A DNA stretch of 64,000 nt from Cyanobacteria bacterium P01_F01_bin.150. Lineage in GTDB: Bacteria > Cyanobacteriota > Cyanobacteriia > CAKZMO01. The notes under the pieces were generated by a model, which had not been told where the DNA came from, did no database searches, and saw only the letters and a program-made list of their open reading frames with translations. A program made the translations under genes and the position numbers. Within the stretch, counting starts at the first letter, position 1, and each line of letters opens with the position of its first letter. Shown here one piece after another: positions 27,658 to 45,690 of this stretch. Location of the stretch: assembly GCA_039189765.1 (NCBI GenBank), contig JBCCYL010000002.1, forward strand, positions 117,768 to 181,767, in the 5' to 3' direction.

Positions 27658-27708
27658 GCACAAGAAGGAGTAGCGGATATTACTACATTTCAGATAACTC
27701 TAAGTTGT

Positions 27709-29159: not shown

Positions 29160-29236
29160 GATGTCCTCCTTTGTTCATTTGTTCAATAATTTCGAACAAT
29201 AGGACTATAGCGTATCCCTATGGCATAATGCAAGGT

Positions 29237-30361: not shown

Positions 30362-30960
30362 GCGGCGCAAAAAATAAGAATTGAGAAAGCTGAAAATTTT
30401 GCTTCCCTATCGATATTTGTGTTGATTCGAATGTTCTATTGTACGAGTTTGAATTTGCCTGTAATCGTCTCTAGATAATGGTTTTAGGAGTCTGATGGAT
30501 GTTGGGCCAATTATTAACATTCTTAGCATGTTGAACTGTTAAGCTTTTGCTGGCTTATTTTTTGCTGGTCTATTTTTTGCTGGCTTATTAGAGTACAGCG
30601 GTTGGGAAACGCAGGAGTATCTGAAAGGATTGTTTTCCGTTTTCCACAGGCTCGCGTGCGTACATCCCAGGCAACATGAACAATATTGCAGAGGTAAACG
30701 ATTGGCTGTTTCATGGGGCAACGTTGAGTACGTTGCCGATGTCCGGCAAATGTGACCTTTAGCCACAGCGCTGAAATGAATAAAGACTTTTAAAATATCC
30801 TCCAAAGCATCTTCCCAGCTCGATAGACTTAGAAGAAGTTCGTTTTAGGTGAAACTAAAATAATCTGGTGGTAGTATAGTTGCTCTGTGCCCACACTATT
30901 CACCTAAATGTGGATCGCTCAAAAGTGATATCTGACGTTAACTTAAAATTACATAGATTT

Positions 30961-31290
30961 ATGACAACCTACTACTACATCGCGGCCAGTAAGAAGTTTC
31001 TAGAGGAAGAAGCGCTGCAAAAAGAGGTGCTTAAAGAGCGGAAGCGGAACTATACGGAAAAAGAGAAGGAAATCGACTTTTGGATGGTTGAACAGCCTGC
31101 CTTTTTAGACGCTCCTGAGTTAGCAACCCAAAAGGCGAAATGTCCTCAACCTGCGGCGGCTGTCATATCGACTAATCCAACCTTTATTAACTGGCTAAAA
31201 CTAAGGCTAGAATATGTGCTGAAAGGAAGCTTTGAAGCTCCTTCTGAGCATATTCCAGACCCATTGGCCTCTCTAGCGACTAAGGCATAA
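30961..31290 (+). CDS. ycf54: Ycf54, MgPME cyclase auxiliary protein
   Basis: MTTYYYIAASKKFL...EVLKER.RNY.EK.KEIDFW...WLKLRLEYV. Confidence 0.93.
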   Translation: MTTYYYIAASKKFLEEEALQKEVLKERKRNYTEKEKEIDFWMVEQPAFLDAPELATQKAKCPQPAAAVISTNPTFINWLKLRLEYVLKGSFEAPSEHIPDPLASLATKA

Positions 31291-31294
31291 TGGT

Positions 31295-32107
31295 TTGCTC
31301 AGTGAAAAAAGCAGCAAGAAAAAACAGCGAGGAAGATTAACAGTGAGACGTAACAGGTTGGCTTTCAATAGCTCCGTTCTATTTGTCCCTGCTGTGGGTA
31401 CAGCCCTAATTGCTGTGATGGGTGGACTGTTTTTAGAAATTCCTCAAATAACTGGTTTATTGGGGCAGGCGTTGAGTGGCTCGCTAGTGGCGATCGCTCA
31501 ATCCCTGCCAACTTGTGAACCCCCTGAATCAGATGAGCATCTGGTGCTAGTTGATCAGCAAACCCCTGAGGAATTGGAGCAGCTCAAAGAAGTGTTGCCC
31601 AACGGTAGCACTACAACTATCTGTCAGTATTTAGACGATACTGTGATTCGAGTGGGGGGATTTGCGAATGAAGAAGTGGCGATGGCCTGGGCAGAGTACC
31701 TTAGTAAAACAGTTCAAGTGCCAACGGCGGTTGTTAATCCGGCTAGGGCTTTTTCTGGTGTTGATGGTGCGACAGCCGAACCACCTGCTGAAGACAATGC
31801 AACTGCTGCTGTTCCTGATGAACCCTCCTATCCTGATTATGAGCCTCAGATATTAGCGGAAGGCTTTGCGGTGTTGGTGGACTATGCTGATCGAACTGAT
31901 TTGGCGATCGCAGTTCAATCAGAATTAGAGGAATCCGTTGGTTTGGCGGTCTATCGTCAAAAGCCCTATCTGATTACGTTTCAATCAGATGACTTTAAGG
32001 ATGCAGGCAAAGTACTGCGCCAGCTTATTGAAGCAGATTTTGATGCAATTCTGGTTGATAGTCGTCAGGTGGTGTTAATGACCCCTGCCGTTGCGATTAC
32101 GCCCTAG
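31295..32107 (+). CDS. Hypothetical membrane-anchored protein
   Basis: Long ORF with an N-terminal hydrophobic segment; no family recognised with confidence. Confidence 0.6.
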   Translation: MLSEKSSKKKQRGRLTVRRNRLAFNSSVLFVPAVGTALIAVMGGLFLEIPQITGLLGQALSGSLVAIAQSLPTCEPPESDEHLVLVDQQTPEELEQLKEVLPNGSTTTICQYLDDTVIRVGGFANEEVAMAWAEYLSKTVQVPTAVVNPARAFSGVDGATAEPPAEDNATAAVPDEPSYPDYEPQILAEGFAVLVDYADRTDLAIAVQSELEESVGLAVYRQKPYLITFQSDDFKDAGKVLRQLIEADFDAILVDSRQVVLMTPAVAITP

Positions 32108-32147
32108 TTCTTTAGAACAAGCCAGAGTTCATTAAGTTTGGTAACAT

Positions 32148-32735
32148 TTGAGAGTTGTCTCTTGCTCTCACCATCTCCCCATGAATCGATTCTGGTCCTT
32201 ACTGACTACCTTTTTTATTAGCAGCACTTTAATACTGGGAGCTACTTTGATGGCTCCATCTTTGGCTTTGGCTTTGGGGGGTCCCCAGCCAGAGCTGAAT
32301 CAATTAGCCCCTGATTTTACGCTGCCAACCAACACAGGAGACGGCTCCATCTCTTTGGATGATTATCGAGGAGAATGGGTTGTTGTGTATTTCTATCCTA
32401 AGGATTTCACTCCTGGATGTACATTAGAGGCCCGGCGTTTTCAACAGGACTTGCTGAAATATCAAAAGCGCAATGCCACTATTTTGGGCATTAGCGTGGA
32501 TGATGTTGATTCCCATGCAGAGTTCTGTGATTCCGAAGGGTTAAAGTTTCCCCTGTTGGCTGATGTCGATGGAGCGGTTAGCAAATCCTACGGGTCTTGG
32601 CTAGGAATGAATTCCCTTCGCCACACCTATATTGTGGACCCCGATGGCCTTCTGCAGGCGCGATTTTTAGGGGTACAGCCTTCTGTTCATAGTCGTGAAG
32701 TTTTGAAGACTCTGGACAAACTACAAACGATTTAA
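32148..32735 (+). CDS. bcp: Peroxiredoxin Q / BCP with signal peptide
   Basis: YFYPKDFTPGCTLEA. Confidence 0.9.
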   Translation: MRVVSCSHHLPMNRFWSLLTTFFISSTLILGATLMAPSLALALGGPQPELNQLAPDFTLPTNTGDGSISLDDYRGEWVVVYFYPKDFTPGCTLEARRFQQDLLKYQKRNATILGISVDDVDSHAEFCDSEGLKFPLLADVDGAVSKSYGSWLGMNSLRHTYIVDPDGLLQARFLGVQPSVHSREVLKTLDKLQTI

Positions 32736-32812
32736 CTGGCCTATTTGGAGGGCGATGCCTGCTCTACGAGATGGCTAATTGGGCCTCTGGATTTATGGTT
32801 TGATTGAGCAAT

Positions 32813-32843
32813 AAGTGGAGCGATCGCCCCGATCGCTCCACTT
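32813..32843. terminator. HIP1-containing hairpin after bcp
   Basis: AAGTGGAGCGATCG-ccc-CGATCGCTCCACTT followed by a T-rich tract. Confidence 0.55.
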
Positions 32844-32946
32844 GTTTATTCTCTGACGAGGGTGCTTTGATAAAAAAACGTCCAGATTCTGGGCAAAATC
32901 GCCTGTATCCACCAAAATAAATGAAGCTCCTTTTCCCTAGATAGAG

Positions 32947-34914
32947 ATGTCAAACTTTCGTGCAGTGATTCTTACCGCACTTCCTGTTGAATTTGAGTCT
33001 GTGCGAGAGTTCTTGCCTAAGAGTGAGGAAGTTTGTCATCCAGCCGGAAACATTTATGAGCGTGGGGAGTTCCAAGGGAATCACTGCCTCTGGGATGTGG
33101 GCATTGCAGAAGTGGGAATGGGAGATGCGGGAGCTGCTTTTGAGACGGAACGAGCGATCTCTTTTTTTAATCCCGACGTTATTTTATTTGTGGGGGTTGC
33201 AGGTGGAATCAAAGATGTTGAGATTGGAGATGTCGTTGCGTCCACCAAAGTTTATAACTATGAGTCTGGAAAGGCGAAAGAAACGTTTAATCCCCGACCA
33301 GAGACAGGATTAAGCTCCTATGCACTGATTCAGCGGGCTATGGCAGAGCGCCGAAGTCGTGGTCAGGAGTGGCTGAGCCGTCTTAAATCTAAGCCCCAAA
33401 AACTGCCTAAGGTGAAGGTCGGGCCGATCGCTGCTGGAGAGAAAGTGATTGCCTCTAAGAAATCAGAGGTATATAAGCTTGTGGAAAAGCAATATGGTGA
33501 TGCTCTGGCGGTTGATATGGAGGGGTATGGCTTTCTAAAGGCCGCTCATGCCAATGAACATCGAGCCGTGGCAATGGTGGTGCGGGGTATTTCTGATCTA
33601 ATTGAGGGCAAGAACGATGAGGAGAATCAGGAACCAGAAGACATTCGCCAAGAAAAAGCATCTCGACATGCCAGTGCATTTGCATTCCAGCTACTGGCAA
33701 ATTTCACCCCGCAAGGAAGGTTAATTGAGGCTCCCTCAGAGGCTCAGCAGGTATCACCTCAACCTTGGGATTCGCTCTTCAACAGTTTTGATAATGTTGA
33801 TCCTGAAAGGCTTCAAACGTTTGCATCTTGCTTGGAAGAGGTATTGCCGCCTTTACAACGAGATCTTTTCCCGGAATTGAGTCAGAAGACGACGATGAAT
33901 CTTAAAACACTTCTTTCTGTAGTGGAGCGTCTTAATAGTGTAGAGCGTCTTGATAGTGTGGGTCTGCTTGTGAAATGGGTAGAGCTTATTGTGCGTGAGC
34001 CAGAAGAGCGATCTGATGATGAATTATCGGGACTTGGTTTATCTGATTTACAAGCATGGTGCGACAAACATCGTCCTTCTGTTAGGGAGCCAGAGCCAGA
34101 GCCGGAGCCAGAGAGATTGGAGTATCTGCTGATTACCCTGGAACCCAGGGATGATGACGATACAGTGTTTCTGACCGCAGAAATTCAGGCTACGAATGGC
34201 AAGTTACTCAGTAATAATCTTTTGCCTCCGGGTCAAAAATGTTCTATCGATGACCCATCTGAATCGTTATCTGAAGCCATTAATAAAGCGGGGAAAGTTA
34301 AAGCCGTTGAAATTTTCTTATCATGGCGGCATTTTCGCAAACCAATTCATGAGTGGAAAATCAATCGAGGTTTGGACGATATACATCTGAACGTGTTCAG
34401 AAATGTATTGCTGCGATCGCTTGATAGGTGTCTAGAAAAGAAATACAAGTATTTGGTAGCTGAATGGACCGAAAGGCTCCGTAGTCAGTGGGAACAACTA
34501 CCCTCCTGTGAGAATCGGGTCTTAGAAGATTATTGCCATAATGTGACGGCGTTGGATTTGGATTTTTTAAGGAGTACCTTGGTCCCAGAAGAATCTAAAT
34601 ATCTGATTTTGCACTTCTTGGATGAACTGCCAGAAGAACTTGACGAGTTAAGGAAGCTAGTTAGTATCTTAATGGAGTCAGGCATTCCTATCTGCTTATG
34701 GCCGCGTGATGAGCCGATTCAATCTGAGAGCGTTCCAGAATCCCTTGCAACACTTCTTTGCGATATGAACGTGCTGCGCCAGCCAAGCCGCTTGGCGGCT
34801 AGTATTCGAAAACTCGATACTCCTTTGTCAAATTTAGGTTTACTATGCGAGTGTCCTTACCGATTACCTGGTTTGGTGGATTGGAAAAGTGGCCGTTTGC
34901 GCCAGCCTGCTTAG
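32947..34914 (+). CDS. PNP/MTA-SAH nucleosidase effector fused to a putative vWA-MoxR-associated protein (VMAP) C-terminal region
   Basis: ILTALPVEF, FVGVAGG, GDVV, AVDMEG.G and VRGISD nucleosidase motifs. The C-terminal VEIFL...PIHEW...LRSLDR and GIPICLW.R segments resemble VMAP-C, and the gene precedes MoxR and vWA. Confidence 0.8.
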   Translation: MSNFRAVILTALPVEFESVREFLPKSEEVCHPAGNIYERGEFQGNHCLWDVGIAEVGMGDAGAAFETERAISFFNPDVILFVGVAGGIKDVEIGDVVASTKVYNYESGKAKETFNPRPETGLSSYALIQRAMAERRSRGQEWLSRLKSKPQKLPKVKVGPIAAGEKVIASKKSEVYKLVEKQYGDALAVDMEGYGFLKAAHANEHRAVAMVVRGISDLIEGKNDEENQEPEDIRQEKASRHASAFAFQLLANFTPQGRLIEAPSEAQQVSPQPWDSLFNSFDNVDPERLQTFASCLEEVLPPLQRDLFPELSQKTTMNLKTLLSVVERLNSVERLDSVGLLVKWVELIVREPEERSDDELSGLGLSDLQAWCDKHRPSVREPEPEPEPERLEYLLITLEPRDDDDTVFLTAEIQATNGKLLSNNLLPPGQKCSIDDPSESLSEAINKAGKVKAVEIFLSWRHFRKPIHEWKINRGLDDIHLNVFRNVLLRSLDRCLEKKYKYLVAEWTERLRSQWEQLPSCENRVLEDYCHNVTALDLDFLRSTLVPEESKYLILHFLDELPEELDELRKLVSILMESGIPICLWPRDEPIQSESVPESLATLLCDMNVLRQPSRLAASIRKLDTPLSNLGLLCECPYRLPGLVDWKSGRLRQPA

Positions 34915-34936
34915 CCCTATATGTTTTGTAAGTTCT

Positions 34937-36151
34937 ATGTCTAACTGGAAATTTTTTACTGGTCAACTAAAGCAAGATAATACGCCTCGGCAATCTCCAT
35001 TGGAGCCAATTGGGGAGCGACCGGCTTGGCGGCAGTTTATGGCTAAGGACGAGTTTGAAAAAACGTGGGCAAAGGCAAGTAAGGCTCGATGGAAGGCATT
35101 GCGGAGTGAGGGGCGACTGGACACGCGATCACGAGAAAAGGGGCAGAGCTTTCGGATTCGGCAAATGGATAATGGCCAGTCTGAGATTCAGACGGCGGTG
35201 AATTCGGCATTGGCTTTGCGGCGTCCACTATTGATTACGGGCAATCCAGGGTCGGGGAAGACATCGTTGGCCTATGCGATCGCCTACGAACTCAATCTAG
35301 GCCCTGTCTTGCTATGGCCCATTACTACCCGCACCAGGTTATCGGATGCGCTCTATCAGTATGATGCGATCGCCCGTTTGCAGGATACTCAGTTTGATAA
35401 GGCGGAACTGGAGTTACAACTGCTATTGGCGAAGGCGGACGATAAAACGCCAGATCGCACCAAAATCGAAGCGCTTAAAAAAGGCCGCAACCTGGGCGAT
35501 TATATTCAGCTTGGGCCCGTGGGAACTGCGTTTCTGCCGTCCCATTTACCCCGTGTGTTGTTAATTGACGAGATTGACAAGAGCGAGTTAAACCTGCCCA
35601 ATGATCTGCTGAATTTGTTTGAGGAAGGCAGCTACAACATTCCAGAATTGGCCCGACAAAAGAGTAGTGCAAAGGTGTCGGTGCGGACGGCAGATGATGA
35701 GCTATCGGCGGATATTGTTAAGGGCAAGGTGACCTGTTACGAATTTCCATTGGTTATTTTGACCAGTAATGGGGAACGGGACTTTCCTCCAGCGTTTCTG
35801 CGTCGCTGTTTGCGGATTAATATGCCTGACCCCACGGAAAGTGATGTGCTGGAGCGTATTGTTGGGGCACACTTTGAATGCGCTGAACATCTGGAGGGAG
35901 AGCGTTCCTGGCCTGAATTAAAAGAGGATATTCGACCGCTGATTGAGGCGTTTGCTAAGGACCTTGGACGCAAGAAATCGTCTTTAGCGACGGATCAACT
36001 GCTGAATTTAATCTATATGGTGCGTCAGTCCCAAATTAGTGTCACTGAGGCCATGGGTGATGAGAGCCAGCACAAGGAAAAAACAGCGGAATTAGACACT
36101 CTCAAAGCCATCTTGCTGCGTCGTCTCACAGGGGAAGCGGGTCGCAAATGA
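34937..36151 (+). CDS. MoxR family AAA+ ATPase
   Basis: LRRPLLITGNPGSGKTSLA, LLIDEIDK and TSNGERDFPPAFLRRC motifs. Confidence 0.92.
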   Translation: MSNWKFFTGQLKQDNTPRQSPLEPIGERPAWRQFMAKDEFEKTWAKASKARWKALRSEGRLDTRSREKGQSFRIRQMDNGQSEIQTAVNSALALRRPLLITGNPGSGKTSLAYAIAYELNLGPVLLWPITTRTRLSDALYQYDAIARLQDTQFDKAELELQLLLAKADDKTPDRTKIEALKKGRNLGDYIQLGPVGTAFLPSHLPRVLLIDEIDKSELNLPNDLLNLFEEGSYNIPELARQKSSAKVSVRTADDELSADIVKGKVTCYEFPLVILTSNGERDFPPAFLRRCLRINMPDPTESDVLERIVGAHFECAEHLEGERSWPELKEDIRPLIEAFAKDLGRKKSSLATDQLLNLIYMVRQSQISVTEAMGDESQHKEKTAELDTLKAILLRRLTGEAGRK

Positions 36152-39087
36152 GCACAGAGCAGTTTGTCGCAGCATTGAGTGAGTGTGACCTCAATCCCAC
36201 AGAGATCGCGGATATTCTCTGGCTAGCGCTGCGTCAACTGGATTCTGCTGAGCAATTTGGTGAGGATAAGACTAATGATGGCCAGGAGGATGGGGCTAGA
36301 GGCGATGATGGCCAGGAGGATGGGGCTGGAGACGATGATGGCCAGGAGGATGAGGCTGGAGACGATGATGGCCAGGAGGATGAGGCTGGAGACGATGATA
36401 GCCAGGAGGATGGGGCTGAAGACGATGATGGCCAAAACGCTGTAGAAGATGGCGCGGCTGGTGGTGATCTTCCCCCTGGCGATGACGATGAAGAAGAGAG
36501 CGGAGAAGAAACCGGGGACGAGGATAAGGATGACGGCTCTGACCAACAGTCGTCCTTTGATATTGCTGCACAGGATGCTTCGGGGGTCTTGCCAGAAAAA
36601 GCGGTCCCCATTTCGGTTCCTGATGCAGGTTTTCTAGAGGAAACGTTACCGCTGGTGCGGGCCTTGCGACCCATCCTAAAGCAAATTGCCTCTGAGACCG
36701 TTAGCTATGTGGATGAGGCGGCAACGGTGGATCGGATTGCGGAGACAAATATCTGGTCGCCGGTGCTGCAACCGGATTATGAACCGTGGTTTGATGTAGC
36801 CTTTGTAATCGATAGCAGTGCTTCCATGCATTTATGGGAGCGGTTGATTCAGGATATTCAGCGGTTGTTGCGCTGCTATGGGTCATTTCGAGACTTTCGA
36901 GTTTGGCAGTTGAAGGTGACAGAAGGCCAGGTGGGTATTTGTGCGGTGCCGGATCAGGTTATGCGCCATCCAAGGGCGTTGCTTGCGCCGGATGGTCGTC
37001 GGCTGACGTTGGTGTTTAGTGACTGTACGGCGGAATATTGGTGGGATGGAACGCTTCAGCCGATGCTGGCCCTGTGGGGAGAGTCCATGCCGACATCAAT
37101 TTGGCAGGTGCTGCCCGATTGGATGTGGAAGCGTACGGCGTTGGGGGTTGGGGAGTATGTGGCGATTCGAAATCGGATTCCTGGGGCGACAAATGGAGAG
37201 CTAAACCCGATCTTTTTATCATTACGTCCATCGATTTTATCGCCAGCGGAGCCGTCTCAGGCGGCAGATAGTTTGGTTGGGGCTTCACCAGCTAAGCCGA
37301 TTTGTGTGCCTGTGATTACTACGGAGTCCGAGTCCCTGAGTGCTTGGAGTCGAATGGTGGCAGGGGATCGGCGGTCGTCAACGCCGGGGTTTGTGTTGCC
37401 GGAGAGGGGCTGGGAGAAGGAGCGGCCAACGCCATCAGATGATTTACAAGGGGATGCCGATCAGCAAGAGGTTGCAGACCAACAGTTGGAGCAATTTCGC
37501 TTACGAGCGACCCCTGAGGCCCGTCGATTGGCGGCGTTATTATCGGCTGCGCCGGTGATTACCTTGCCGATTATGCGGTTGATTCGAGCGTCCATGTTGT
37601 CTGGCACGTCTCCATTGCCGGTGGCTGAGGTCTTTTTAGGCGGGTTGTTAAAGCGGACATCCACCCCAGGGCAGACGCCAGATAAGCCGATAGATACTGA
37701 GCTGGTCCAGTATGATTTGCCGATTGAAACGCGGAATCGCCTGTTGGATGTGTTGCCAAAGGTGGAGGCGATTGAGGTGATCGAGGCGGTGTCCCAACAT
37801 ATTTCTGAGCAGTTGGGGCTGACTCTGATGGATTTTCGGGCATTGCTGTTATCTCTTGACTTAAAACAGGAGGCGGATCAGTATGACCTAAAAGCGTTTG
37901 CCCGTGTGACGGCCCAGATTTTACGAAAGTTGGGGAAGGAGTATGCGGCCTTAGCGGACCAATTTGAGGTTCCTCTGGAGCCTGATATCCCTCGGACACA
38001 GAAATGGTTGGATCTGCCCCTGGAGGAGTTTGAGCACGAATCGGCTAGGCTTGTGGCTTTGCCTAGTGAGCCGAGGGCGATCGCCCTTACCATAGTTACG
38101 TTAAGCATTCAGCCAGACTATGCTGCGGGGCTGGAAGAGGTGGAAGACCGTCAGGCTGAAGTTGTGACGCTGGTGGTTGACGAAGCAGAGCAACCATCAG
38201 TATTTGATCAGTTAGAACCGTTTCCAATTCAGATTGCAACGGTTGAACGTCAAGGGTCTGAGTGGGTGGTTAACTATACCGAATCAGAGGCCGATCGCTA
38301 TATTGAGACCTTGCCAGGGGGAATTTCTTTGGAATTAGCAAGGATTCCATCTGGGGGCTTTATGATGGGGGCACCAGAGGATGAACCAGAGCGCCATGGG
38401 CGGGAAACTCAGCATCGAGTGACGATCGCTTATGACTTTTTGATGGGGCGCTATCCCGTGACTCAGGCTCAGTGGCGGGTGGTTGCATCCTCCCTGCCTC
38501 AGATTGTTCGGAATCTAAAACCAGCCCCATCTAAATTTAAAGAGGAGAAGCGTCCGGTTGAACGAGTCAGTTGGCATGAGGCGATAGAGTTTTGTAATCG
38601 CCTTAATCGCTATTTTGAGGGGCGCTCTATCCCGGAGGGGTACGAATATCGCTTACCGAGCGAAATTGAATGGGAATATGCCTGTCGTGCAGAAACCACT
38701 ACTCCCTTTTATTTTGGGCCAATGATTACGACCGAGGTAGCAAATTATAGCGGTAGCTCCTATGACGATGGACCTACTGGAAAAAGGCGAGGAGAAACCA
38801 CCCCAGTTACCGAGTTTAACCATGCCAATCAATTTGGCCTATCGGATATGCATGGCAATGTTTGGGAATGGTGCTTAGATGAGTGGTGGCATCAGAATTA
38901 CAGGGGTGCCACCCTCGATGGCAGTACGTGGCTAGAGAACACCCCACAAAGTAATAATAGGCATGTTAGGCGTGGCGGGTCTTGGATCTCTCGTCCGAGG
39001 TACTGTCGGTCTGCCTATCGTCTCCACGACCACTCCGACCTTCGCTCCGACTCTCTTGGTTTTCGGGTTGTTCTCGCCCCTCAATGA
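36148..39087 (+). CDS. vWA (SAV_2336-type) protein with C-terminal FGE-sulfatase/CLec domain; putative DGR target 1
   Basis: EIADILWLA N-terminus, RALRP, DE.ATV..IA, vWA VIDSSASM..W, FSDC...W; C-terminal RLPSE.EWEYACRA, DMHGNVWEW, RGGSW and GFRVV. Overlaps the MoxR stop (ATGA). Confidence 0.88.
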   Translation: MSTEQFVAALSECDLNPTEIADILWLALRQLDSAEQFGEDKTNDGQEDGARGDDGQEDGAGDDDGQEDEAGDDDGQEDEAGDDDSQEDGAEDDDGQNAVEDGAAGGDLPPGDDDEEESGEETGDEDKDDGSDQQSSFDIAAQDASGVLPEKAVPISVPDAGFLEETLPLVRALRPILKQIASETVSYVDEAATVDRIAETNIWSPVLQPDYEPWFDVAFVIDSSASMHLWERLIQDIQRLLRCYGSFRDFRVWQLKVTEGQVGICAVPDQVMRHPRALLAPDGRRLTLVFSDCTAEYWWDGTLQPMLALWGESMPTSIWQVLPDWMWKRTALGVGEYVAIRNRIPGATNGELNPIFLSLRPSILSPAEPSQAADSLVGASPAKPICVPVITTESESLSAWSRMVAGDRRSSTPGFVLPERGWEKERPTPSDDLQGDADQQEVADQQLEQFRLRATPEARRLAALLSAAPVITLPIMRLIRASMLSGTSPLPVAEVFLGGLLKRTSTPGQTPDKPIDTELVQYDLPIETRNRLLDVLPKVEAIEVIEAVSQHISEQLGLTLMDFRALLLSLDLKQEADQYDLKAFARVTAQILRKLGKEYAALADQFEVPLEPDIPRTQKWLDLPLEEFEHESARLVALPSEPRAIALTIVTLSIQPDYAAGLEEVEDRQAEVVTLVVDEAEQPSVFDQLEPFPIQIATVERQGSEWVVNYTESEADRYIETLPGGISLELARIPSGGFMMGAPEDEPERHGRETQHRVTIAYDFLMGRYPVTQAQWRVVASSLPQIVRNLKPAPSKFKEEKRPVERVSWHEAIEFCNRLNRYFEGRSIPEGYEYRLPSEIEWEYACRAETTTPFYFGPMITTEVANYSGSSYDDGPTGKRRGETTPVTEFNHANQFGLSDMHGNVWEWCLDEWWHQNYRGATLDGSTWLENTPQSNNRHVRRGGSWISRPRYCRSAYRLHDHSDLRSDSLGFRVVLAPQ
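36276..36437 (+). repeat. Coding 30-bp acidic tandem repeat (DDGQED(G/E)AGD, about 5 copies)
   Basis: GATGATGGCCAGGAGGATG(G/A)GGCTGGAGAC units. Confidence 0.9.
38971..39087 (+). repeat. Putative DGR variable region VR1
   Basis: 117-bp block homologous to 39879, 41217 and 42181, with variation at codon positions 1-2. Confidence 0.75.
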
Positions 39088-39158
39088 CTCCTTTTGTAAT
39101 TTGCCTTATTTCATTTTATTTTCTACATATAAAAATAATAAAATCTCATTGATTAGAA

Positions 39159-39995
39159 ATGGCGACATCCTCCAGTACGGCTCCTAGGAAAATTCGGGAA
39201 GAACGTGAGACGACGACGTTTCGGTTTGGGCAAGAGCGGTTGAATGATGAGGTTCTGCTGAATTTGGTGCGGATTCTGGCTGGGGGTTTCATTATGGGGT
39301 CGCCAGAGGGAGAAGAGGGGCGTTCTGATGCTGAAGGTCCTCAGCGCTTGGTGTCAGTGTCGGAGTTCTGGATGGGGCAGTATCCCGTGACTCAGCAAGA
39401 ATGGCGGATTGTGGCTGGATATACCAAGGTTGAACGAGATATGGAGCTTGACCCATCTCATTTTAAGGGAGGCCGTCGTCCGGTCGAGAGAGTATCCTGG
39501 GATGATGCGGTGGAGTTTTGTCAACGCCTCTCGCAGCATACAGGCCGTAACTACCGCTTACCTTCGGAAGCTGAATGGGAATATGCCTGTCGGGCGGAAA
39601 CTAAGACCCCCTTTCATTTGGGTCTAACCCTTTCAGCCAAATACTCTAACTACGACGCCAGGGAAGTGTATGGTCTTGGGACACAGGGAGAATATCGAAG
39701 GGGAACTGTGGATGTAGATCACTTTCAGGTGACCAATAACTTTGGATTGGTCGGGATGCATGGCAATGTGTGGGAATGGTGCCAGGACCACTGGCATGAA
39801 AGCTATAAGGGTGCCCCCCTCAATGGTAGTGCATGGATGGAGAACACCTCACATAGTAAGAATAGGGACTGCGTATTTCGTGGCGGGGCTTGGTTAACTC
39901 GTCCGAGAGACTGTCGGTCTGCCTTTCGTGGCCACAATCTTCCCGCCTATCGCCGCCGCAATCTCGGTTTTCGGGTAGTTCTCGCCCCCCAATGA
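39159..39995 (+). CDS. Stand-alone FGE-sulfatase/CLec protein; putative DGR target 2
   Basis: F.MGS, YPVTQ, RLPSEAEWEYACRA, MHGNVWEW, RGGAW and GFRVVLAPQ. Confidence 0.9.
   Translation: MATSSSTAPRKIREERETTTFRFGQERLNDEVLLNLVRILAGGFIMGSPEGEEGRSDAEGPQRLVSVSEFWMGQYPVTQQEWRIVAGYTKVERDMELDPSHFKGGRRPVERVSWDDAVEFCQRLSQHTGRNYRLPSEAEWEYACRAETKTPFHLGLTLSAKYSNYDAREVYGLGTQGEYRRGTVDVDHFQVTNNFGLVGMHGNVWEWCQDHWHESYKGAPLNGSAWMENTSHSKNRDCVFRGGAWLTRPRDCRSAFRGHNLPAYRRRNLGFRVVLAPQ
39879..39995 (+). repeat. Putative DGR variable region VR2
   Basis: 117-bp homologous block; the most diverged of the four. Confidence 0.7.
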
Positions 39996-40035
39996 CTCCT
40001 TTGCTTTTTCTTTTTTGTCTTTTTGCCTTTGCCCC

Positions 40036-40087
40036 GGTGCCCAGACTCTGGCTCCCGGAGCATTCCCAGCCAGAGTCTGGGAATCAG
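40036..40087. repeat. REP-like element (short, internally deleted form)
   Basis: GGTGCCCAGACTCTGGCT...TTCCCAGCCAGAGTCTGGGAATCAG. Confidence 0.7.
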
Positions 40088-40111
40088 GGGGATCAGAGGG
40101 GCGGCTGAGGA

Positions 40112-40240
40112 TCAGGCATCAAGCAAGTCAAACAGAATCTGCACCAGTTTAGGAGCGCTAAAAATTGGAATCCATTTGGTGGTTGTGCAGGTGACAAAGT
40201 GGGGCTGGTTGCCCACAGTCCGATATTGAGAACGATCCAT
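40112..40240 (-). pseudogene. Truncated REP-associated tyrosine transposase (RAYT, Y1/HUH) N-terminal fragment
   Basis: MDRSQYRTVGNQPHFVTCTTTKWIPIFSAPKLVQILFD resembles RAYT N-termini. It stops after 42 codons, before any HUH motif, and is flanked by REP-like elements. Confidence 0.7.
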
Positions 40241-40333
40241 ACTGAAGATTAAATAATGTGGTCTTAACGTTCCCAATTGAATTGGAAGATTGCATACTGA
40301 AAGGCAGATATGTTCGCATTCCTCCAGTCCACC

Positions 40334-40442
40334 CTGGTGCCCAGACTCCGGCTGGGTGCAATGGACGAGACTCTGGCTCGTCTGCCTTTGTTTTTGGAGC
40401 CGGAGTCTCCAAGAGGATTCCCAGCTAGAGTCTGGGAATGAG
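40334..40442. repeat. REP/REPIN-like element
   Basis: CTGGTGCCCAGACTCCGGCTGGGTG...TTCCCAGCTAGAGTCTGGGAATGAG; homologous to 43847-43960. Confidence 0.8.
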
Positions 40443-40481
40443 GTGTGTAAGAGTTGTAAGTTGATTGGAGTATTCCCTTCA

Positions 40482-41333
40482 ATGGTTGTTTTCATCCCCA
40501 AAAAACGAACGCACACCGACCAGCGCTTTTTTGAAGCCTTGGGGAATAACCAACGATTGGAAATGGTGTTAATTCAGGAGGGAACCTTTACGATGGGATC
40601 TCCTGATAATGAGGAAAAACGCAGAGATGCGGAAGGTCCACAGCGTGAGGTAACGGTTTCAACTTTTCTGATGGGCCGTTATCCCGTGACCCAATCCCAG
40701 TGGCGGCAAGTGTCTAAATTTGACCCCGTTGACCCGGATATTGAATTTCCCCCTAATCCATCTCGCTTCAAGAATAAGCAAGATAGCGATCATCGTCCGG
40801 TGGAGCAGGTGAATTGGCATCAGGCCAATGAGTTCTGTGCTCGCCTCAATCAGTTTCTTGAATCCCGCTCCAGCACTCCATTGAATCGAGCCTATCGCTT
40901 ACCGTCCGAAGCAGAGTGGGAATATGCTTGTCGAGCTGGAACTACCACTCCTTTTTATTGCGGCGAAACCATCTCCACAGACGTCGCCAATTATGATGGC
41001 AACTACACCTACGGTAGAGGGCCAAAAGGCCGATATCGAGAAGAAACTACCCCTGTCGGCTCTTTGGAGTCTGGCAATTCCTGGGGACCGTGTGATATGC
41101 ATGGCAATGTTTGGGAATGGTGCCAAGACCACTGGCATGAAAATTACAAGTATGCCCCCCTCGATGGCAGTGCATGGCTGGAGAACACCCCACAAAGTGA
41201 GAATAGGCGGGTGAACCGTGGCGGGTCTTGGCTCGCTCGTCCATGGTTCTGTCGGTCTGCCTGTCGCAACCGCTACCACCCCGACGGTCGCGACGCCTAT
41301 CTTGGTTTTCGTGTTGTTCTCGCCCCCCAATGA
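40482..41333 (+). CDS. Stand-alone FGE-sulfatase/CLec protein; putative DGR target 3
   Basis: ATG at 40482 with an upstream GGAG (the ORF-track extension to 40290 runs through a REP); LEMVLI..GTFTMGS, RLPSEAEWEYACRA and GFRVVLAPQ. Confidence 0.9.
   Translation: MVVFIPKKRTHTDQRFFEALGNNQRLEMVLIQEGTFTMGSPDNEEKRRDAEGPQREVTVSTFLMGRYPVTQSQWRQVSKFDPVDPDIEFPPNPSRFKNKQDSDHRPVEQVNWHQANEFCARLNQFLESRSSTPLNRAYRLPSEAEWEYACRAGTTTPFYCGETISTDVANYDGNYTYGRGPKGRYREETTPVGSLESGNSWGPCDMHGNVWEWCQDHWHENYKYAPLDGSAWLENTPQSENRRVNRGGSWLARPWFCRSACRNRYHPDGRDAYLGFRVVLAPQ
41217..41333 (+). repeat. Putative DGR variable region VR3
   Basis: 117-bp homologous block. Confidence 0.75.
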
Positions 41334-41439
41334 TTCCCCTTTGCCATCTGCTTTTTTGCCTTTCGCTTTCTTCAAGAAATATTCAGTTAAACCTTTCGAT
41401 AAATTAACTAGAAATTATTCAGAGTAAAATCCTTCGCCG

Positions 41440-42297
41440 ATGGTTTCCTCCCCTCCCACCGAATCCAATCCCAAATGCCATATTGACCGAGAACCGATTG
41501 AGGTGATATCGGTTCAGCAGCCGTTAAATAACGACGTGAGTTTGGTCTTGGTGCAGATTCCAGAGGGGGATTTTATGATGGGGTCCCCAGAAGATGAACT
41601 CGAACGAAGCGATGCAGAAGGGCCGCAGCACCCGGTGCATATTCAGGAATTTTGGATGGGGCAATATCCCGTAACCCAGGCAGAATGGCGCATTGTGGCC
41701 AGCTATCGCAAAGTAAACCATGACTTAGCGGCTGCCCCCTCCGAATTCAAAGGAGATCGATTGCCCGTCGAGAACGTGTCTTGGGATGATGCGGTGGAGT
41801 TTTGTCAGCGCCTCTCCCAAAACACCGGATTGAACTATCGCCTCCCCACCGAAGCCGAATGGGAATACGCCTGTCGAGCTAAAACCACAACCCCCTTCCA
41901 TTTTGGCAAAACCATCACCACTGAGTATGCCAACTATCGAGGAACCGATGATGAGTATGGAAATTCTGGTTCCTATGGGGGTGGCCCCAAAGGGGGCTAT
42001 CGAGAGGAAACAACTTCTGTAGGCTCCTTTGAGGTCACTAACCACTTTGGCCTTGCCGATATGCACGGCAATGTGTGGGAGTGGTGCCAGGACCACTGGC
42101 ATGACAACTATAAGGATGCCCCCTCCGATGGCAGTGCTTGGCTGGGCAACACCCCACAAAGTATTAATATGCGTGTAATTCGTGGCGGGTCTTGGCTCGA
42201 TCGTCCATGGTACTGTCGGTCTGCCTATCGTGGCCGCAACCCCCCCGGCCTTCGCCACCTCAATCTTGGTTTTCGTGTAGTTCTTGCCCCCCAATGA
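41440..42297 (+). CDS. Stand-alone FGE-sulfatase/CLec protein; putative DGR target 4
   Basis: FMMGSPEDE, RLPTEAEWEYACRA, DMHGNVWEW, RGGSW and GFRVVLAPQ. Confidence 0.9.
   Translation: MVSSPPTESNPKCHIDREPIEVISVQQPLNNDVSLVLVQIPEGDFMMGSPEDELERSDAEGPQHPVHIQEFWMGQYPVTQAEWRIVASYRKVNHDLAAAPSEFKGDRLPVENVSWDDAVEFCQRLSQNTGLNYRLPTEAEWEYACRAKTTTPFHFGKTITTEYANYRGTDDEYGNSGSYGGGPKGGYREETTSVGSFEVTNHFGLADMHGNVWEWCQDHWHDNYKDAPSDGSAWLGNTPQSINMRVIRGGSWLDRPWYCRSAYRGRNPPGLRHLNLGFRVVLAPQ
42181..42297 (+). repeat. Putative DGR variable region VR4
   Basis: 117-bp homologous block. Confidence 0.75.
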
Positions 42298-42511
42298 CTG
42301 GGCTGCGCACTCTGGGGCTTCTTAACGGAGGCGTATTTATGCAAGATCGCTGCCCGGAACCCACCACCCCTAGCCCCTCCAAGGAGGGGAACCGGAACGT
42401 AGCCCAAGTCTCTATCTACCTCCGGCTCTCTTGGGAGGGGTTGGGGGTGGGTCAGTCGAGACCCTGGCTGCGAATGAGGGAATTAGGCATAAGGGATAAC
42501 TTACTCATAAC

Positions 42512-43726
42512 TTACTCATAACTTACTAATAGCTCTAATCCCTTCGCTCCACGCAGTCGAAAATGGTTTAGAACTTGGGGATTTTGAATACCCAACTCTG
42601 CGACAAAATCAGTTTCTCCAGTACTGGTTTCCTCAAAATAAGCTGCTGCCGGGGCATCGCCATCTAAAAACTGAATCACCGCATTGGGGCCATACTTTTG
42701 CTTTGCAACCTTTAAAGCATCATGCATTAGTAACGAGGGGGTAATCATCGAACCCAAATATTCTTTCGTTTGGTCATCAAAAATACGCAGTCCTCTGGCG
42801 ACAGATTGGGTTTCGTGGAACAAAAACGGTCCGCCGCGTCGCCCACCACCCCTCTCAAATACCGCTTCAATATCATCAGGGTGGCGGATAACACCATGGG
42901 TATCAATCGTAAAGGCCACAACATCTGGCCGTTGTTCCAGGTGTTCTAGCTCTGGCCGAATCTGTTGTTTAATGCTCTCTAACTTCTCATCAGGCATTTC
43001 CCCAGCCCCTTCAAGATGACTAAAATCCAAGTACTCTATACGACCATCCTGATACGTCACAATCCCTGACAACAAAATATTAGGCGCAGACTGACCTGAA
43101 TTATCAGACGATCGATAAATGGGTAGCTCTTCCCCCTGATTTTGGGATAAACGATTCGGGTTGAAGTAGTGATAGCTCAACGCTGTAGCAGCTTTGGTGC
43201 CCGGCTCAAAGCCCTTAAACGTAGTGCCAAAGATGCCGAGCACTTGCCCGCCCGTACGTTCAATTTCAGCCTGAACGGTTTTATAGCTATGCTCTTCTAG
43301 TAGGGGTAGAAGTAGGGTGTTATTGCCTGGTTCTATAGTAATCGTGGGACCTTGCGCATACCAATTGAGCGGGGTATCAGCCATCACTGGCCGGCCATCA
43401 ACTTTGAGATATTCAGGACCGGGGGCAATTTGGTAGGCATGGCCATTTTTATCCAGCACAATCCGTGGACGTCCACTGCTTTGTACGGATTGAACCGTCA
43501 CGGTCCGAATAATCCGTTCCCAGTCGGGGTCAAAATCATAAAAAGATAGGGGGAATGATTCTTCTTCCAGTAGTAAAGACGGTGAGTCTAAATCTTGATA
43601 GTCTACCGGGTCCGACATCAGCCGAAACTGAGCGGTTTCAACCACAATGGCTTGAGTCCCTGCACAATTAGATAATAGGACGGATGCCCCCAACAGAACC
43701 GACAATTTCCCAAATGAAACAGACAT
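42512..43726 (-). CDS. Hypothetical lipoprotein
   Basis: Signal peptide with LSNC lipobox-like motif; no family recognised. Confidence 0.6.
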   Translation of the reverse strand: MSVSFGKLSVLLGASVLLSNCAGTQAIVVETAQFRLMSDPVDYQDLDSPSLLLEEESFPLSFYDFDPDWERIIRTVTVQSVQSSGRPRIVLDKNGHAYQIAPGPEYLKVDGRPVMADTPLNWYAQGPTITIEPGNNTLLLPLLEEHSYKTVQAEIERTGGQVLGIFGTTFKGFEPGTKAATALSYHYFNPNRLSQNQGEELPIYRSSDNSGQSAPNILLSGIVTYQDGRIEYLDFSHLEGAGEMPDEKLESIKQQIRPELEHLEQRPDVVAFTIDTHGVIRHPDDIEAVFERGGGRRGGPFLFHETQSVARGLRIFDDQTKEYLGSMITPSLLMHDALKVAKQKYGPNAVIQFLDGDAPAAAYFEETSTGETDFVAELGIQNPQVLNHFRLRGAKGLELLVSYE

Positions 43727-43846
43727 AAACTAGCTCAATCCTTGGAATTCGACGTGCTACTAATAGCTATCTCTGGCCCTTGGGTAGATATTCAAAAAAC
43801 AGCCAAAGGCTGGGAATGAGAGGTAGGTGCGATCGCCTCTTCTCTC

Positions 43847-43960
43847 CTGGTGCCCAGACTCCAGCTGGGTGCCCAAGACGAGCCAGAGTCTCGTCTGCCT
43901 TCTGCCTGGATGTGGAGCCAGAGTCTCCAAGCAGATTCCCAGACTACGGCTGGGAATGAG
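43847..43960. repeat. REP/REPIN-like element
   Basis: CTGGTGCCCAGACTCCAGCTGGGTG...TTCCCAGACTACGGCTGGGAATGAG. Confidence 0.8.
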
Positions 43961-43980
43961 GGATTGTTTGCTTTCTGATG

Positions 43981-44748
43981 TCAAACTTCGGTGTTCAGGC
44001 GTCTATAAGCAAGTACCCCCAAGAGCAGCAGCGTCACTGCAACCGCAGTTATCCAAATCGTTGGAGAATCGGGATGCCGCAGGGCGATCGCCCCATAGGC
44101 CCAAGCAAACACCAAAATAAACGCCACATCCCTAAATCCCACCGCAATAAAGCTAGCGACCACACCGCCCACCACCAACATAATCGCAGTCCAGACCGCG
44201 CCACTAATGCCCCAGCCACTCCACTCAGCTGCATACAATGCACTGGCAACATTTACGATAGTGGCCACTGAAATCCACGCCGTGTAGATACTAAAGGGAA
44301 TCTGCTCCAGCCAGCGCCGCTTTGTGGACAGTCGCACCTCGCCAACGCCAAGCTTACGGTAAATCAGCAGCAGCGGCACTAAAATCGCCAGCATCATCAC
44401 CACCGAAAGGGCAAACAGCTTTAGGGTAAAGCAGAAAATCCAGAAAACTTGGGCAATACATGCCGTAATCAGCAGGCTATTGATCCGCCAGAATTTAGGA
44501 TTTCGCTGCTGGGTCGGCCCCAGTTGATAAATACCGTAGGCAATTAGCTCAACATAAATTAGGCCCCAAATAATAAACGCGTAGTTCGCAGGCGTAATTA
44601 ATACCCCAGACAGTACCGTATTGGCTATTGTCCCTACGTTTTGGCCACCCAAGGGAAAGATATTCGACAGGGTGTTAACCGCTAATGTGGCGATAATGGC
44701 AAGAAGAGTGGCGATCGCCAGTCCCTGCCTAGGTTCAGAATTCTGCAT
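43981..44748 (-). CDS. Tryptophan-rich sensory (TspO/MBR-like) membrane protein
   Basis: ITPANYAFIIWGLIY and PFSIYTAWISVATIVN; multiple transmembrane segments. Confidence 0.75.
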   Translation of the reverse strand: MQNSEPRQGLAIATLLAIIATLAVNTLSNIFPLGGQNVGTIANTVLSGVLITPANYAFIIWGLIYVELIAYGIYQLGPTQQRNPKFWRINSLLITACIAQVFWIFCFTLKLFALSVVMMLAILVPLLLIYRKLGVGEVRLSTKRRWLEQIPFSIYTAWISVATIVNVASALYAAEWSGWGISGAVWTAIMLVVGGVVASFIAVGFRDVAFILVFAWAYGAIALRHPDSPTIWITAVAVTLLLLGVLAYRRLNTEV

Positions 44749-44850
44749 AATCTCATCAAAAATATCACCCAGCACGTTGGGATAGCTTAAAGCATTACCC
44801 AGTGCCAGGCTCAAAATGTAAGTTGAAGTCCGAACCACAATACCTCACTA

Positions 44851-45690
44851 TTAAGTAGAGGTGTCAACCTCTGAATATGTCTGGGCTACCCCTCTCAGCC
44901 AGTTAATCGCTTGATGTCTCTCCCTTGCGATGCTTTGACATTGATAGAAACGATCGGCAGGTGCTCGCGAGATGGGGACATTGTCAATTGCCAAATCATC
45001 GTCTGAGAACGATATGCCATCGACTTTCAAGGGTCCAAACCATGCTGTTTCTGCAAATACTCGGAAATTCATCGCCTGCCGACGGATGGCAAAGTCGCGG
45101 ATGCGCCAATGTACGGCCAGTTGCATGTCTGAGAATCGGTCCAGCTTATCTGCGCTGCGTAACGTCAACGCCTGAGCACGGTGTTTTGCATCATCTTCAA
45201 GCAGAAAAAGAGAATTAGCAACCTCGGCTGGATCGACCATTTGATCATGTTGAGGCATCTCGATCGCATTTAAGCTCCAAGCAAGGACCGCCAATCCTTC
45301 AGAACGCCACAGTCCATTGGCCACCGTTTGAGGATCAAGTGAGCCAATGTCAGCTTCCATCATTCCACGTTCCGATGGTTCTAACTCTGAATAGAGTTCC
45401 ATTGTGCTAATCCAATGTATGAGCCGAGCATAGAGACGCTCTGCCTCTATCGGATCATCAAGCGTCTCAACAAATGAACGACTGACAACAGCACCAATGG
45501 CCCAAGCCCTACGTTGAACTCGCGTTTCAGAAGGCCGTCCAATCTCCAAATCTTTTTCCACGCTCTTTTCCTCTGCAATGCCATTATGATCTGAGGCGCA
45601 GTTGCGGAGCACTCCATGTCTCACAACGGCGTTAAGGATTTTCCGGCTTAAGTTATCGTTATTTCCGGAGAATTTATTGAGGATGCACAA
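44851..45690 (-). CDS. DUF4272-like protein
   Basis: LEPSER, WRSEGL.VLAW.L, HWRIRD and ERHQAINWL...Y.EVDTST. Confidence 0.7.
   Translation of the reverse strand: MCILNKFSGNNDNLSRKILNAVVRHGVLRNCASDHNGIAEEKSVEKDLEIGRPSETRVQRRAWAIGAVVSRSFVETLDDPIEAERLYARLIHWISTMELYSELEPSERGMMEADIGSLDPQTVANGLWRSEGLAVLAWSLNAIEMPQHDQMVDPAEVANSLFLLEDDAKHRAQALTLRSADKLDRFSDMQLAVHWRIRDFAIRRQAMNFRVFAETAWFGPLKVDGISFSDDDLAIDNVPISRAPADRFYQCQSIARERHQAINWLRGVAQTYSEVDTST

Follow-up and report, generated by a model that had tools for sequence, protein, structure and literature searches.

A predicted VMAP conflict system with a nucleosidase effector and four CLec sensors probably written by a since-lost diversity-generating retroelement in a cyanobacterial genome

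The locus described here occupies positions 32947-42297 of a 64,000-nucleotide (nt) stretch, hereafter the window, of the metagenome-assembled genome of Cyanobacteria bacterium P01_F01_bin.150 (GCA_039189765.1, contig JBCCYL010000002.1). [quoted passage not shown] We consider it probable that this is a VMAP-type conflict system (of an anti-invader or abortive-infection kind predicted for filamentous bacteria) with a PNP effector and sensors written by a diversity-generating retroelement (DGR), and that the retroelement has been lost, leaving a fixed panel of receptors. The window constitutes the final 64 kb (C2:117768-181767) of the 181.8-kb contig C2 of the assembly, G000 below, which comprises 350 contigs and 10.6 Mb (99% complete, 4.7% contamination). 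Genes for Ycf54, the Mg-chelatase H subunit, and PUCC mark the assembly as cyanobacterial. The only public run containing the stretch is labelled marine metagenome; it is probably the source metagenome and is kept as contigs, and no RNA run containing the stretch is listed.

Six co-oriented open reading frames (ORFs) on the + strand fill the locus, as had been proposed in a reading of the sequence alone (the sequence-only reading below), and the overlap of the ATPase and vWA-FGE genes in an ATGA, also pointed out there, is present (Table 1). Its classification of the locus as VMAP-MoxR-vWA, with a nucleosidase on the VMAP N-terminus and a CLec (FGE) domain on the vWA C-terminus, is borne out by domain, fold, and synteny evidence. 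The core genes are adjacent and co-oriented, with a 22-nt gap between the VMAP and ATPase genes, and keep the same order in three other genomes (G052, G066, and G388). The fusion of nucleosidase and VMAP within 32947-34914 was recovered with Pfam: PNP_UDP_1 covers residues 6-243 (E 1.3e-26, 93.9 bits) and VMAP-C (PF20028) covers residues 440-617 (E 4e-14; 53.5 bits, the cut-off being 27). A profile check of the same gene against VMAP-M had also been proposed; no VMAP-M family in Pfam was matched in the middle region, which is helical (~270-385) and constitutes the least conserved part among 17 family members. Both PF01048 and PF20028 are found in all 17. An AlphaFold2 (AF2) model of the whole protein from 17 sequences was too poor for a fold search (predicted local distance difference test, pLDDT, 55; predicted template modelling score, pTM, 0.36). 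At the C-terminus, an RLRQP motif (window 34897-34911) is invariant in 17/17 members, in contrast to the majority of columns in the VMAP part, and is thus a candidate site for docking or cleavage.

The nucleosidase domain appears to belong with defence-type effectors, apart from the housekeeping MTAP of the genome. Residues E15, M191-E192-G193, and R213-G214-I215-S216-D217 are invariant throughout the 17-member family; we take these to be the catalytic residues of MTA/SAH nucleosidase, D217 of the Ile-Ser-Asp motif being the assumed, rather than aligned, counterpart of D353 in DtcC. The domain scores under the MtnN equivalog cut-offs of NCBIfam (NF004079, 71.7 vs 169 bits; TIGR01704, 33 vs 73.8 bits) and matches the PADLOC models for the CBASS PN-effector (1e-14) and PDC-M60C (5.5e-24). 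With E values of 1e-11 to 1e-24, the domain and three paralogs from the same genome match the PADLOC models for PDC-M60C and the PN-superfamily effector of CBASS; the housekeeping MTAP (536 bits vs a cut-off of 453) yields no PADLOC match, and the HpnG-like PNP reaches just E 0.023. One of the paralogs carries a fused EAD8, with genes for a further EAD8 protein and an NB-ARC/TPR STAND protein after it; the other two are fused to GUN4, the GUN4 parts matching PADLOC PD-T4-6. A single genome thus employs the same enzyme head, on EAD8, GUN4, and VMAP, as a plug-in module of several scaffolds of conflict type.

The ATPase gene anticipated by the sequence-only reading is present, with its start most likely at ATG 34937, directly after the 22-nt gap (the 404-residue form is on record), instead of the proposed GTG 34889. 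It contains AAA_5 (36.2 bits vs a Pfam cut-off of 22), the match running over 194 residues for 138 profile positions, which indicates a long insert; this may or may not be the insert in helix 2 of the AAA+ core that marks the MoxR clade. The Walker A (GNPGSGKT, 102-109) and Walker B (LLIDE, 208-212) motifs are invariant in the family. Its relatives bear the name MoxR-like at JGI and NCBI, and it falls among 'MoxR family ATPase' and AAA_5 clusters of Cyanobacteriota and Actinomycetota. Because of the AAA_5 domain, the Walker motifs, the names of the relatives, the clusters, and the translational coupling to the MIDAS (metal-ion-dependent adhesion site) protein, we accept the enzyme as MoxR-like.

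The vWA-FGE protein consists of an acidic low-complexity N-terminus, a predicted vWA/MIDAS region (~167-409), a helical, winged-helix-like region (~435-560), a linker, and the FGE/CLec domain (732-975, Pfam FGE-sulfatase). The NCBIfam model SAV_2336_NTERM covers residues 84-557 with 368 bits (cut-off 200). This N-terminal module is common to 88 proteins (query included), whose C-termini differ (FGE, TPR, CHAT, GUN4, NB-ARC, or kinase); a shared N-terminal module with varied C-termini is the pattern that Kaur, Burroughs, Iyer, and Aravind (2020; eLife 9:e52696, PMC7159879) report for vWA components. Residues 141-560 were modelled with AF2 from 39 sequences, and the model is confident (pLDDT 88.1, pTM 0.86). 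In Foldseek, the best and only match at E≤0.001 is the NorD VWA in the NorQ(MoxR)-NorD complex (E 1.9e-4), and an exhaustive aligner run over 48,161 chains is led by Rea1 MIDAS (Z 8.8, rmsd 4.1, 166 aligned), MDN1 MIDAS (Z 8.5), and NorD VWA (Z 8.1). About 30 of the 50 fold matches listed are vWA, MIDAS, or I-domains by title. The MIDAS-type motif DSSAS (residues 222-226) is located precisely where the first core strand of the model ends. Model residues ~295-420 are similar to the part of STAND proteins that is helical or winged-helix (Z 6-7.7). The assignment of the third gene as a vWA protein therefore stands on SAV_2336_NTERM, the DSSAS motif, and a model whose best fold matches are MIDAS/vWA domains, Pfam being silent; by sequence and fold, its product joins a vWA domain with a MIDAS to a helical domain of STAND-like type and to the FGE/CLec domain at the C-terminus. 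Pfam VWA domains in three relatives were dropped as evidence, as they are additional C-terminal domains and not the N-terminal one.

Acidic residues abound in the N-terminal tail of this protein (47% Asp+Glu in residues 36-135), where a tandem repeat encodes them. MIDAS sites grip acidic residues on extended peptides; one might speculate that the tail is a built-in pseudo-ligand for the MIDAS. The contigs of the source run break within the repeat.

The three downstream FGE genes exist as proposed (FGE-sulfatase, E 8e-49 to 3e-55), save for the start of FGE2, which most likely is ATG 40482 and not TTG 40290, where the longest ORF begins; the ATG gives a protein of 283 residues, similar to FGE1 (278) and FGE3 (285). 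The N-termini of all three are hydrophilic by eye. The best solved relatives of FGE3 are PvdO (1.2e-35), TvpA of Treponema, which is a DGR variable protein (1.3e-19), and then FGEs (~1e-18).

The 3' ends of the four FGE genes, i.e., the variable regions (VRs), carry a DGR-type signature. DNA identity amounts to 60-69% over most of the domain, 75-81% in the 25 codons preceding the VR, and 75-85% in the last 38 codons. Third codon positions vary in 141 of 172 codons upstream vs 12 of 39 in the VR block (p 1.2e-9), and the VR amino acids are less conserved than the VR DNA. The 80 invariant VR bases comprise 31 C, 23 G, 23 T, and 3 A, two of the latter within the final CAA codon; invariant A accounts for 54 of 218 bases upstream vs 3 of 80 in the VR (p 1e-5). 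Among the 34 variable VR columns, 22 fall at codon positions 1-2, and 20 of these are not simple transitions. A shared DGR template with AAC/AAT-type codons would produce such a pattern, as non-A sites are copied faithfully and A sites are randomised, followed by some later drift. In all four FGE domains, the terminal 38 codons were thus written by a DGR from one shared template, which gave four different binding pockets. Two other origins of the VRs were rejected: a history of duplication under positive selection would have left silent sites unhomogenised, and gene conversion would not leave the columns at codon positions 1-2 scrambled. Exact contigs of the source run span each VR without differences; as contigs drop rare variants, this has no bearing on hypermutation. 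A looser match, at 80% likeness, brought in many paralogs and other organisms.

The retroelement itself was not encountered near the genes that it seems to have written. No reverse transcriptase (RT; RVT_1) was detected by Pfam among the 44 window ORFs scanned, and neither tblastn with two DGR RTs and an avd of the genome nor blastn gave a meaningful RT, avd, or template repeat (TR) in the window. The genome contains five RVT_1 matches, two of which are DGR-type RTs (358 and 371 residues), one on contig C2, 116 kb upstream of the locus, and the other on C48. Both are followed by a TR on the same strand, the C2 cassette also shows two VRs, and the gene order is target, avd, RT, TR (according to the ORF list and the avd match). 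A third TR/VR pair is located on C134, and no RT was found for it. All 350 contigs were scanned for a template, ungapped and on both strands, with a mask of the 80 invariant VR sites: the four VRs score 80/80, and the next VR-like ends of other FGE genes score 66/80 and 64/80. No matching template is found in the 10.6 Mb (best non-self match 66/80), in agreement with nhmmer. The three real TRs carry A at 19-22 of the 34 variable VR sites and match just 50-54 of the 80 invariant ones, so they cannot template the four VRs.

Remnants of a dedicated cassette are preserved in relatives. A metagenome scan with an 18-letter VR core matched at least 118 stretches, of which 80 were fetched (a stricter VR pattern gave no matches in the metagenomes), so that further relatives with a TR may exist; a 1,400-nt contig (L072) stood out among those fetched. 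Its nt 4-171 correspond to residues ~20-75 of a DGR RT and nt 189-272 to residues ~324-351, the catalytic core being deleted. They are followed at nt ~402-517 by a non-coding copy of the VR, i.e., a TR, with no FGE sequence upstream and no stop codon; the next ~70 nt are common to the three real TR loci of the genome and to none of the VRs. From nt 721, the contig continues into an ortholog of FGE2 (78.8% nt identity to window 40463-41140). Compared with the four VRs of the window, this TR has a 6-nt gap and is changed at 8-13 of its 20 A sites but at only 8-10 of 89 non-A sites (p 0.005 to 4e-7). Genome G002, of the same genus, has a 6.4-kb contig with the same four VRs, collinear with window 38587-42293. 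In its FGE1-FGE2 gap of 1.9 kb, bAvd persists in truncated form (PF22296, positions 3-70 of the 107 in the profile) and shares 62% identity with the avd genes that belong to the two G000 DGRs; xisH, xisI, and a Uma2-family gene lie there too, and no RT or TR was found. Between G000 and G002, orthologous VRs diverge at 12-15 of the 20 A sites vs 12-15 of the 89 non-A sites (p 7e-5 to 1e-7), so rewriting must have continued after the lineages split. No DGR cassette remnant is detectable in the FGE1-FGE2 gap of the window, where relatives hold theirs; it contains MITE-like repeats (miniature inverted-repeat transposable elements), and related copies recur at 43846-43961, ~3.5 kb downstream.

The intact DGR order of target, avd, RT, TR is reproduced by FGE1, the avd of G002, the RT and TR of L072, and FGE2, which places the ancestral cassette between FGE1 and FGE2. 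On the simplest reading, the ancestral locus would have been vWA-FGE, FGE1, avd, RT, TR, FGE2, FGE3, with the retroelement decaying separately in each line. A distant relative, G388, assembled in 3 contigs, encodes PNP-VMAP, MoxR, vWA-FGE, an IS110 transposase gene, and two FGE genes on a 107-kb contig (C3) with a ResT/TelK-type telomere resolvase gene (E 8e-29); this contig may be a linear plasmid. A DGR lies 80 kb away on the same contig, and its TR mismatches the VR of the system at non-A sites. The expanded sensor array that the sequence-only reading had emphasised is therefore not special to G000, given the same four VRs in G002 and the vWA-FGE with two downstream FGE genes in G388. The PNP-VMAP type itself appears to be rare and patchy: a collection of 5.8 billion proteins contains 16 relatives, all of 634-657 residues with both domains (the four named ones come from Leptolyngbya and Leptothoe), the type occurs in 4 of 401 sampled cyanobacterial genomes (G000 included), and a full-length match in 1 of 60 genomes of the nearest relatives. 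A locus search of genome contigs gave five loci, all matching the PNP domain alone.

The segment directly 3' of the TR is conserved beyond these loci. About 110 nt are shared by 17 cyanobacterial DGR loci from 15 genomes (two of them in G000) and one metagenome contig. Their fold comprises a nested stem that bears a hairpin, together with another hairpin, with 96% of cells paired (31-49% when partners are slid) and compensatory changes in 14 of 25 pairs; none of 500 shuffles reaches the observed covariation. No Rfam 15 match was obtained for two of the TR loci, and no description was found in a brief literature search that included a DGR survey. The element may correspond to the spacer RNA of the Bordetella DGR.

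In the reading favoured here, the retroelement (avd, RT, TR) would once have been situated between FGE1 and FGE2, and its loss would have turned the four receptors into a fixed, germline-encoded panel. A CLec pocket would bind an invader-derived or non-self ligand, and the MoxR ATPase, acting on the vWA/MIDAS scaffold, would remodel the vWA-VMAP complex. The PNP domain would be released or activated and would cleave the N-glycosidic bond of adenine nucleotides (ATP/dATP, as in Cap17 and DtcC); the cell would be arrested or killed, which would limit spread along the filament. The three untethered CLec proteins might exchange with the tethered one or add to it. Such a circuit of sensor, MoxR, and nucleosidase, also put forward in the sequence-only reading, would be plausible; it joins the proposal of Doré et al. 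(2024; PNAS 121:e2316469121, PMC10907252) to the ATP-nucleosidase work of Rousset et al. (2023; bioRxiv 10.1101/2023.01.24.525353). A more far-reaching version is offered tentatively, as one possibility: the locus could represent a natural switch from a 'somatic-like' to a 'germline' repertoire, in which a DGR wrote four CLec pockets (one vWA-tethered, three free), was lost independently in related lineages, and left the panel as the fixed front end of a single MoxR-gated nucleosidase.

Several points weigh against this interpretation. No Pfam VWA family, nor any other, is matched in residues 141-560 of vWA-FGE at E≤1, and a 12-sequence profile of the vWA family retrieves no solved vWA domain from the PDB. 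The fold scores (Z 8.1-8.8) barely exceed the 7-8 usual for unmatched models, and Foldseek mixes phosphoribosyltransferases among the vWA matches at low TM scores (0.20/0.30); hence the fold argument rests on the consistency of the match list and on the position of DSSAS. A PDB sequence search with the ATPase gave nothing, and a 25-sequence profile produced only P-loop-local matches and no link to a solved MoxR. In the VRs, 8 of the 12 third-position differences are simple transitions, which fits drift after the last rewriting and does not date it. With an assembly of 350 contigs, the cognate TR/RT could lie on an unassembled piece. All steps of the mechanism past the presence of the domains are taken over from other systems: the substrate of PNP is predicted, Kaur et al. 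proposing in the passages drawn on that VMAP-borne PNP domains make a signal, and the link of the three stand-alone FGE proteins to the ATPase or VMAP is putative.

The sequence-only reading assumed that the array is still hypermutated, which would call for a cognate TR (with or without an RT of its own) on a piece of the genome missing from the assembly or the bin, used in cis or, through one of the DGR RTs of the genome, in trans. The genome does encode at least two such RTs (358 and 371 residues) with avd and TR, in addition to the C134 TR/VR pair; DGRs that act in trans and TRs at remote genomic sites have been reported (Kaur 2020; Doré 2024, in the parts cited here), the assembly is fragmented, and the four FGE ORFs are intact with highly conserved VR 3' ends. 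We nevertheless regard ongoing rewriting as unlikely: nothing in the 10.6 Mb exceeds 66 of the 80 invariant sites and the real TRs stop at 50-54, a dedicated cassette is decaying at the same position in two relatives, and third-position transitions have accumulated among the VRs. The 3-contig genome G388 is likewise devoid of a matching TR, the nearest one, on the same replicon, differing at non-A sites. "Hypermutated" thus holds as history, from the DGR-type signature of the four 3' ends, and not for the present (no RT, avd, or TR in the window and no matching template in the assembly). The description of the present locus as adaptive-immunity-like is not supported, as the cognate template and RT were not found in the genome and are visibly decayed in two relatives.

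The flow of information might also run as Kaur et al. (2020) suggest: the VMAP middle region would sense, the MoxR-vWA pair would act as a threshold switch, the FGE/CLec domains would be effectors or binders and not sensors, and PNP would make a second messenger instead of depleting ATP. In the cited parts of that paper (PMC7159879), nucleoside phosphorylase is listed among the signal-generating VMAP N-termini and FGS among the vWA-borne effectors, and the low conservation of the VMAP middle among the 17 family members would agree with a sensing role. On the other side, DGR-diversified CLec/FGE domains bind ligands in the characterised cases, TvpA being the second-best solved relative, and defence-type PNP domains deplete ATP/dATP and are toxic alone according to the cited passages of Rousset et al. 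(2023; bioRxiv 10.1101/2023.01.24.525353). Moreover, none of the neighbouring genes scanned stood out as encoding a receptor for a signal in the form of a base or ribose-phosphate. Taken together, this flow seems distinctly unlikely here.

A regulatory module of the cell's own physiology, e.g., one that senses a self or environmental glycan or peptide and tunes nucleoside metabolism, has little probability. In its favour are the surroundings, which Pfam scans show to be housekeeping genes (Ycf54, peroxiredoxin, Mg-chelatase) with no clear defence island, and the argument of Vallota-Eastman et al. (2020; BMC Genomics 21:664, PMC7517822), in the part cited, that cyanobacterial DGR targets tune regulatory pathways. 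The PNP domain, however, groups with defence-type effectors and not with the housekeeping MTAP, its paralogs in the genome sit with EAD8 and NB-ARC/TPR STAND proteins, and both the patchy occurrence of the VMAP type (4/401 genomes) and the G388 copy on a 107-kb contig with telomere-resolvase and IS110 genes fit an accessory conflict system. Least probable of all is a decay of the whole system, with the DGR loss as its first step and the remaining genes no longer functional together: the lost cassette, the MITE-like insertions between FGE1 and FGE2, and the IS110 transposase gene between vWA-FGE and the downstream FGE genes of G388 are outweighed by six intact ORFs, conserved catalytic, Walker, and MIDAS motifs, and the four-VR array kept in the same-genus G002.

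The type of system has been described before. VMAP ternary conflict systems (vWA-MoxR subsystem 1) were defined by Kaur et al. (2020), who report a DGR link in ~80% of the cyanobacterial and gammaproteobacterial ones and allow for a TR elsewhere in the genome. Within the cited parts of their paper, the locus agrees with theirs in its core genes (VMAP with VMAP-C, MoxR-clade AAA+, and vWA), in the nucleoside-phosphorylase head listed for VMAP, and in the FGS/FGE tail of cyanobacterial vWA proteins; it differs in the absence of a detected cognate TR/RT, in a middle region free of Pfam matches, and in three additional stand-alone FGE genes. In Doré et al. (2024), CLec-vWA is the sensor and the VMAP N-terminus the effector. 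Their DGR 4, 5, and 7 of Thiohalocapsa PB-PSB1 and cyanobacterial clade 5E likewise place a vWA + CLec target beside MoxR and VMAP, and they describe short CLec-only targets next to a long one, DGR loci that are incomplete or disrupted, and targets at a distance. The VMAP effectors given there are trypsin-like peptidases or TIR, whereas PNP occupies this place here. For their orphan targets, a TR in another place agrees at every non-A site, or variants with an intact RT exist, whereas no TR matches the present VRs. The conflict role of VMAP systems is a prediction in these source papers too (PMC7159879, PMC10907252, in the parts cited).

For the effector, the closest parallels are Cap17 (CBASS) and DtcC (Detocs), whose PNP domains cleave ATP/dATP and are toxic alone (Rousset et al. 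2023, bioRxiv 10.1101/2023.01.24.525353, as excerpted); a figure legend of the same preprint names FGE-S among the cassettes of the defensive PNP clade. As in these proteins, a modular effector of the PNP_UDP_1 fold is fused to sensor or adaptor parts, and the PADLOC CBASS PN-effector model matches it. Activation here would be by the MoxR/vWA pair and not by a cyclic oligonucleotide or phosphotransfer, and membership in the defensive clade and ATP specificity are predictions. The best fold matches, NorQ-NorD and Rea1/MDN1 (PDB 9qhe, 9qh8, 6qta, 8ql1), also combine an AAA_5/MoxR-type ATPase with a MIDAS domain that grips a partner peptide; unlike the present system, they are assembly chaperones (nitric-oxide reductase maturation and ribosome biogenesis), at 12-15% sequence identity. 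Loss of DGR machinery also has precedents. Vallota-Eastman et al. (2020) report paralogs with remnant TR-VR homology and suggest that the machinery is removed once a variant has been selected; their degraded DGRs of Nostoc all3226 and Anabaena sp. 90 similarly have VR-bearing paralogs with no RT nearby. As far as the cited text goes, the present case differs in that the loss is traced to a precise position in a VMAP system, in three stages in related genomes and with four VRs. The system type, PNP head, FGE tail, DGR link, and sensor model are thus already in the sources cited, and the traced decay of a dedicated DGR is a modest addition.

VMAP ternary systems constitute widespread predicted immune or programmed-death systems of multicellular bacteria, for which the literature consulted yielded no bench test. 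The locus is a compact candidate for a first reconstitution, as the type of effector is understood elsewhere and the Walker A, MIDAS, and ISD motifs are easily mutated. The series of a deleted RT with a TR, an avd stump, and nothing suggests that DGR-written receptor panels can outlive their retroelement, which matters wherever DGR targets are counted only beside intact RTs or VR-like variation is taken to prove that hypermutation is still under way. Should the free CLec proteins indeed plug into the same MoxR/VMAP machine, they would provide a bacterial case of several interchangeable receptors sharing one executioner.

Table 1. Coordinates of the features discussed (positions refer to the window unless a contig is named)
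Feature	Position	Strand	Basis or remark
PNP-VMAP protein, 655 amino acids (aa)	32947..34914	+	Pfam, family conservation, PADLOC
MoxR-like AAA+ ATPase, 404 aa	34937..36151	+	AAA_5, Walker motifs, relatives; stop overlaps vWA-FGE start (ATGA)
vWA-FGE, putative scaffold/sensor protein, 979 aa	36148..39087	+	Pfam, NCBIfam, AF2 model, fold searches
30-nt tandem repeat, ~6-7 units, encodes acidic 10-residue repeat	36245..36464	+	vWA-FGE N-terminus
VR of vWA-FGE, last 38 codons ahead of stop	38971..39084	+	Alignment of four FGE 3' ends
FGE1, FGE/CLec gene, 278 aa, hydrophilic N-terminus by eye	39159..39995	+	Pfam; VR 39879-39992
FGE1-FGE2 gap, 486 nt, palindromic MITE-like repeats	39996..40481	.	Copies 40040-40088, 40333-40443
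FGE2, FGE/CLec gene, probably 283 aa	40482..41333	+	Pfam; VR 41217-41330
FGE3, FGE/CLec gene, 285 aa	41440..42297	+	Pfam; VR 42181-42294
Terminator-like hairpin, 17 pairs, contains GCGATCGC palindromes	32810..32846	+	Consensus scan only
Three defence-type PNP paralogs	G000 C75 (~24975-29700), C49 (~40375-41845), C85 (~17540-21185)		Pfam/PADLOC
Conserved TR 3' flank	L072:500-640; G000 C2 ~33410-33545; C48 ~28575-28700		Outside window

The six-gene block looks like one transcription unit. The terminator-like hairpin, located between the upstream peroxiredoxin gene and the system, is likely to form its 5' boundary, and the gene downstream of FGE3 is in convergent orientation. A promoter scan gave fewer sites than shuffled sequences (5 vs 9.3), and no Rfam match was found within window 30000-46000.

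Two low-GC stretches flank the locus at some distance. The first (33-38% GC, 24001-28000) carries an 889-residue STAND-like protein with weak P-loop NTPase matches and many TPR repeats (23601-26270, - strand), which may be another horizontally acquired conflict gene. The second (37-39% GC, 50001-56000) encodes an 864-residue protein with a weak patatin-like phospholipase match (52265-54859, - strand), and a RelE-like toxin gene at 49896-50249 is grouped with it.

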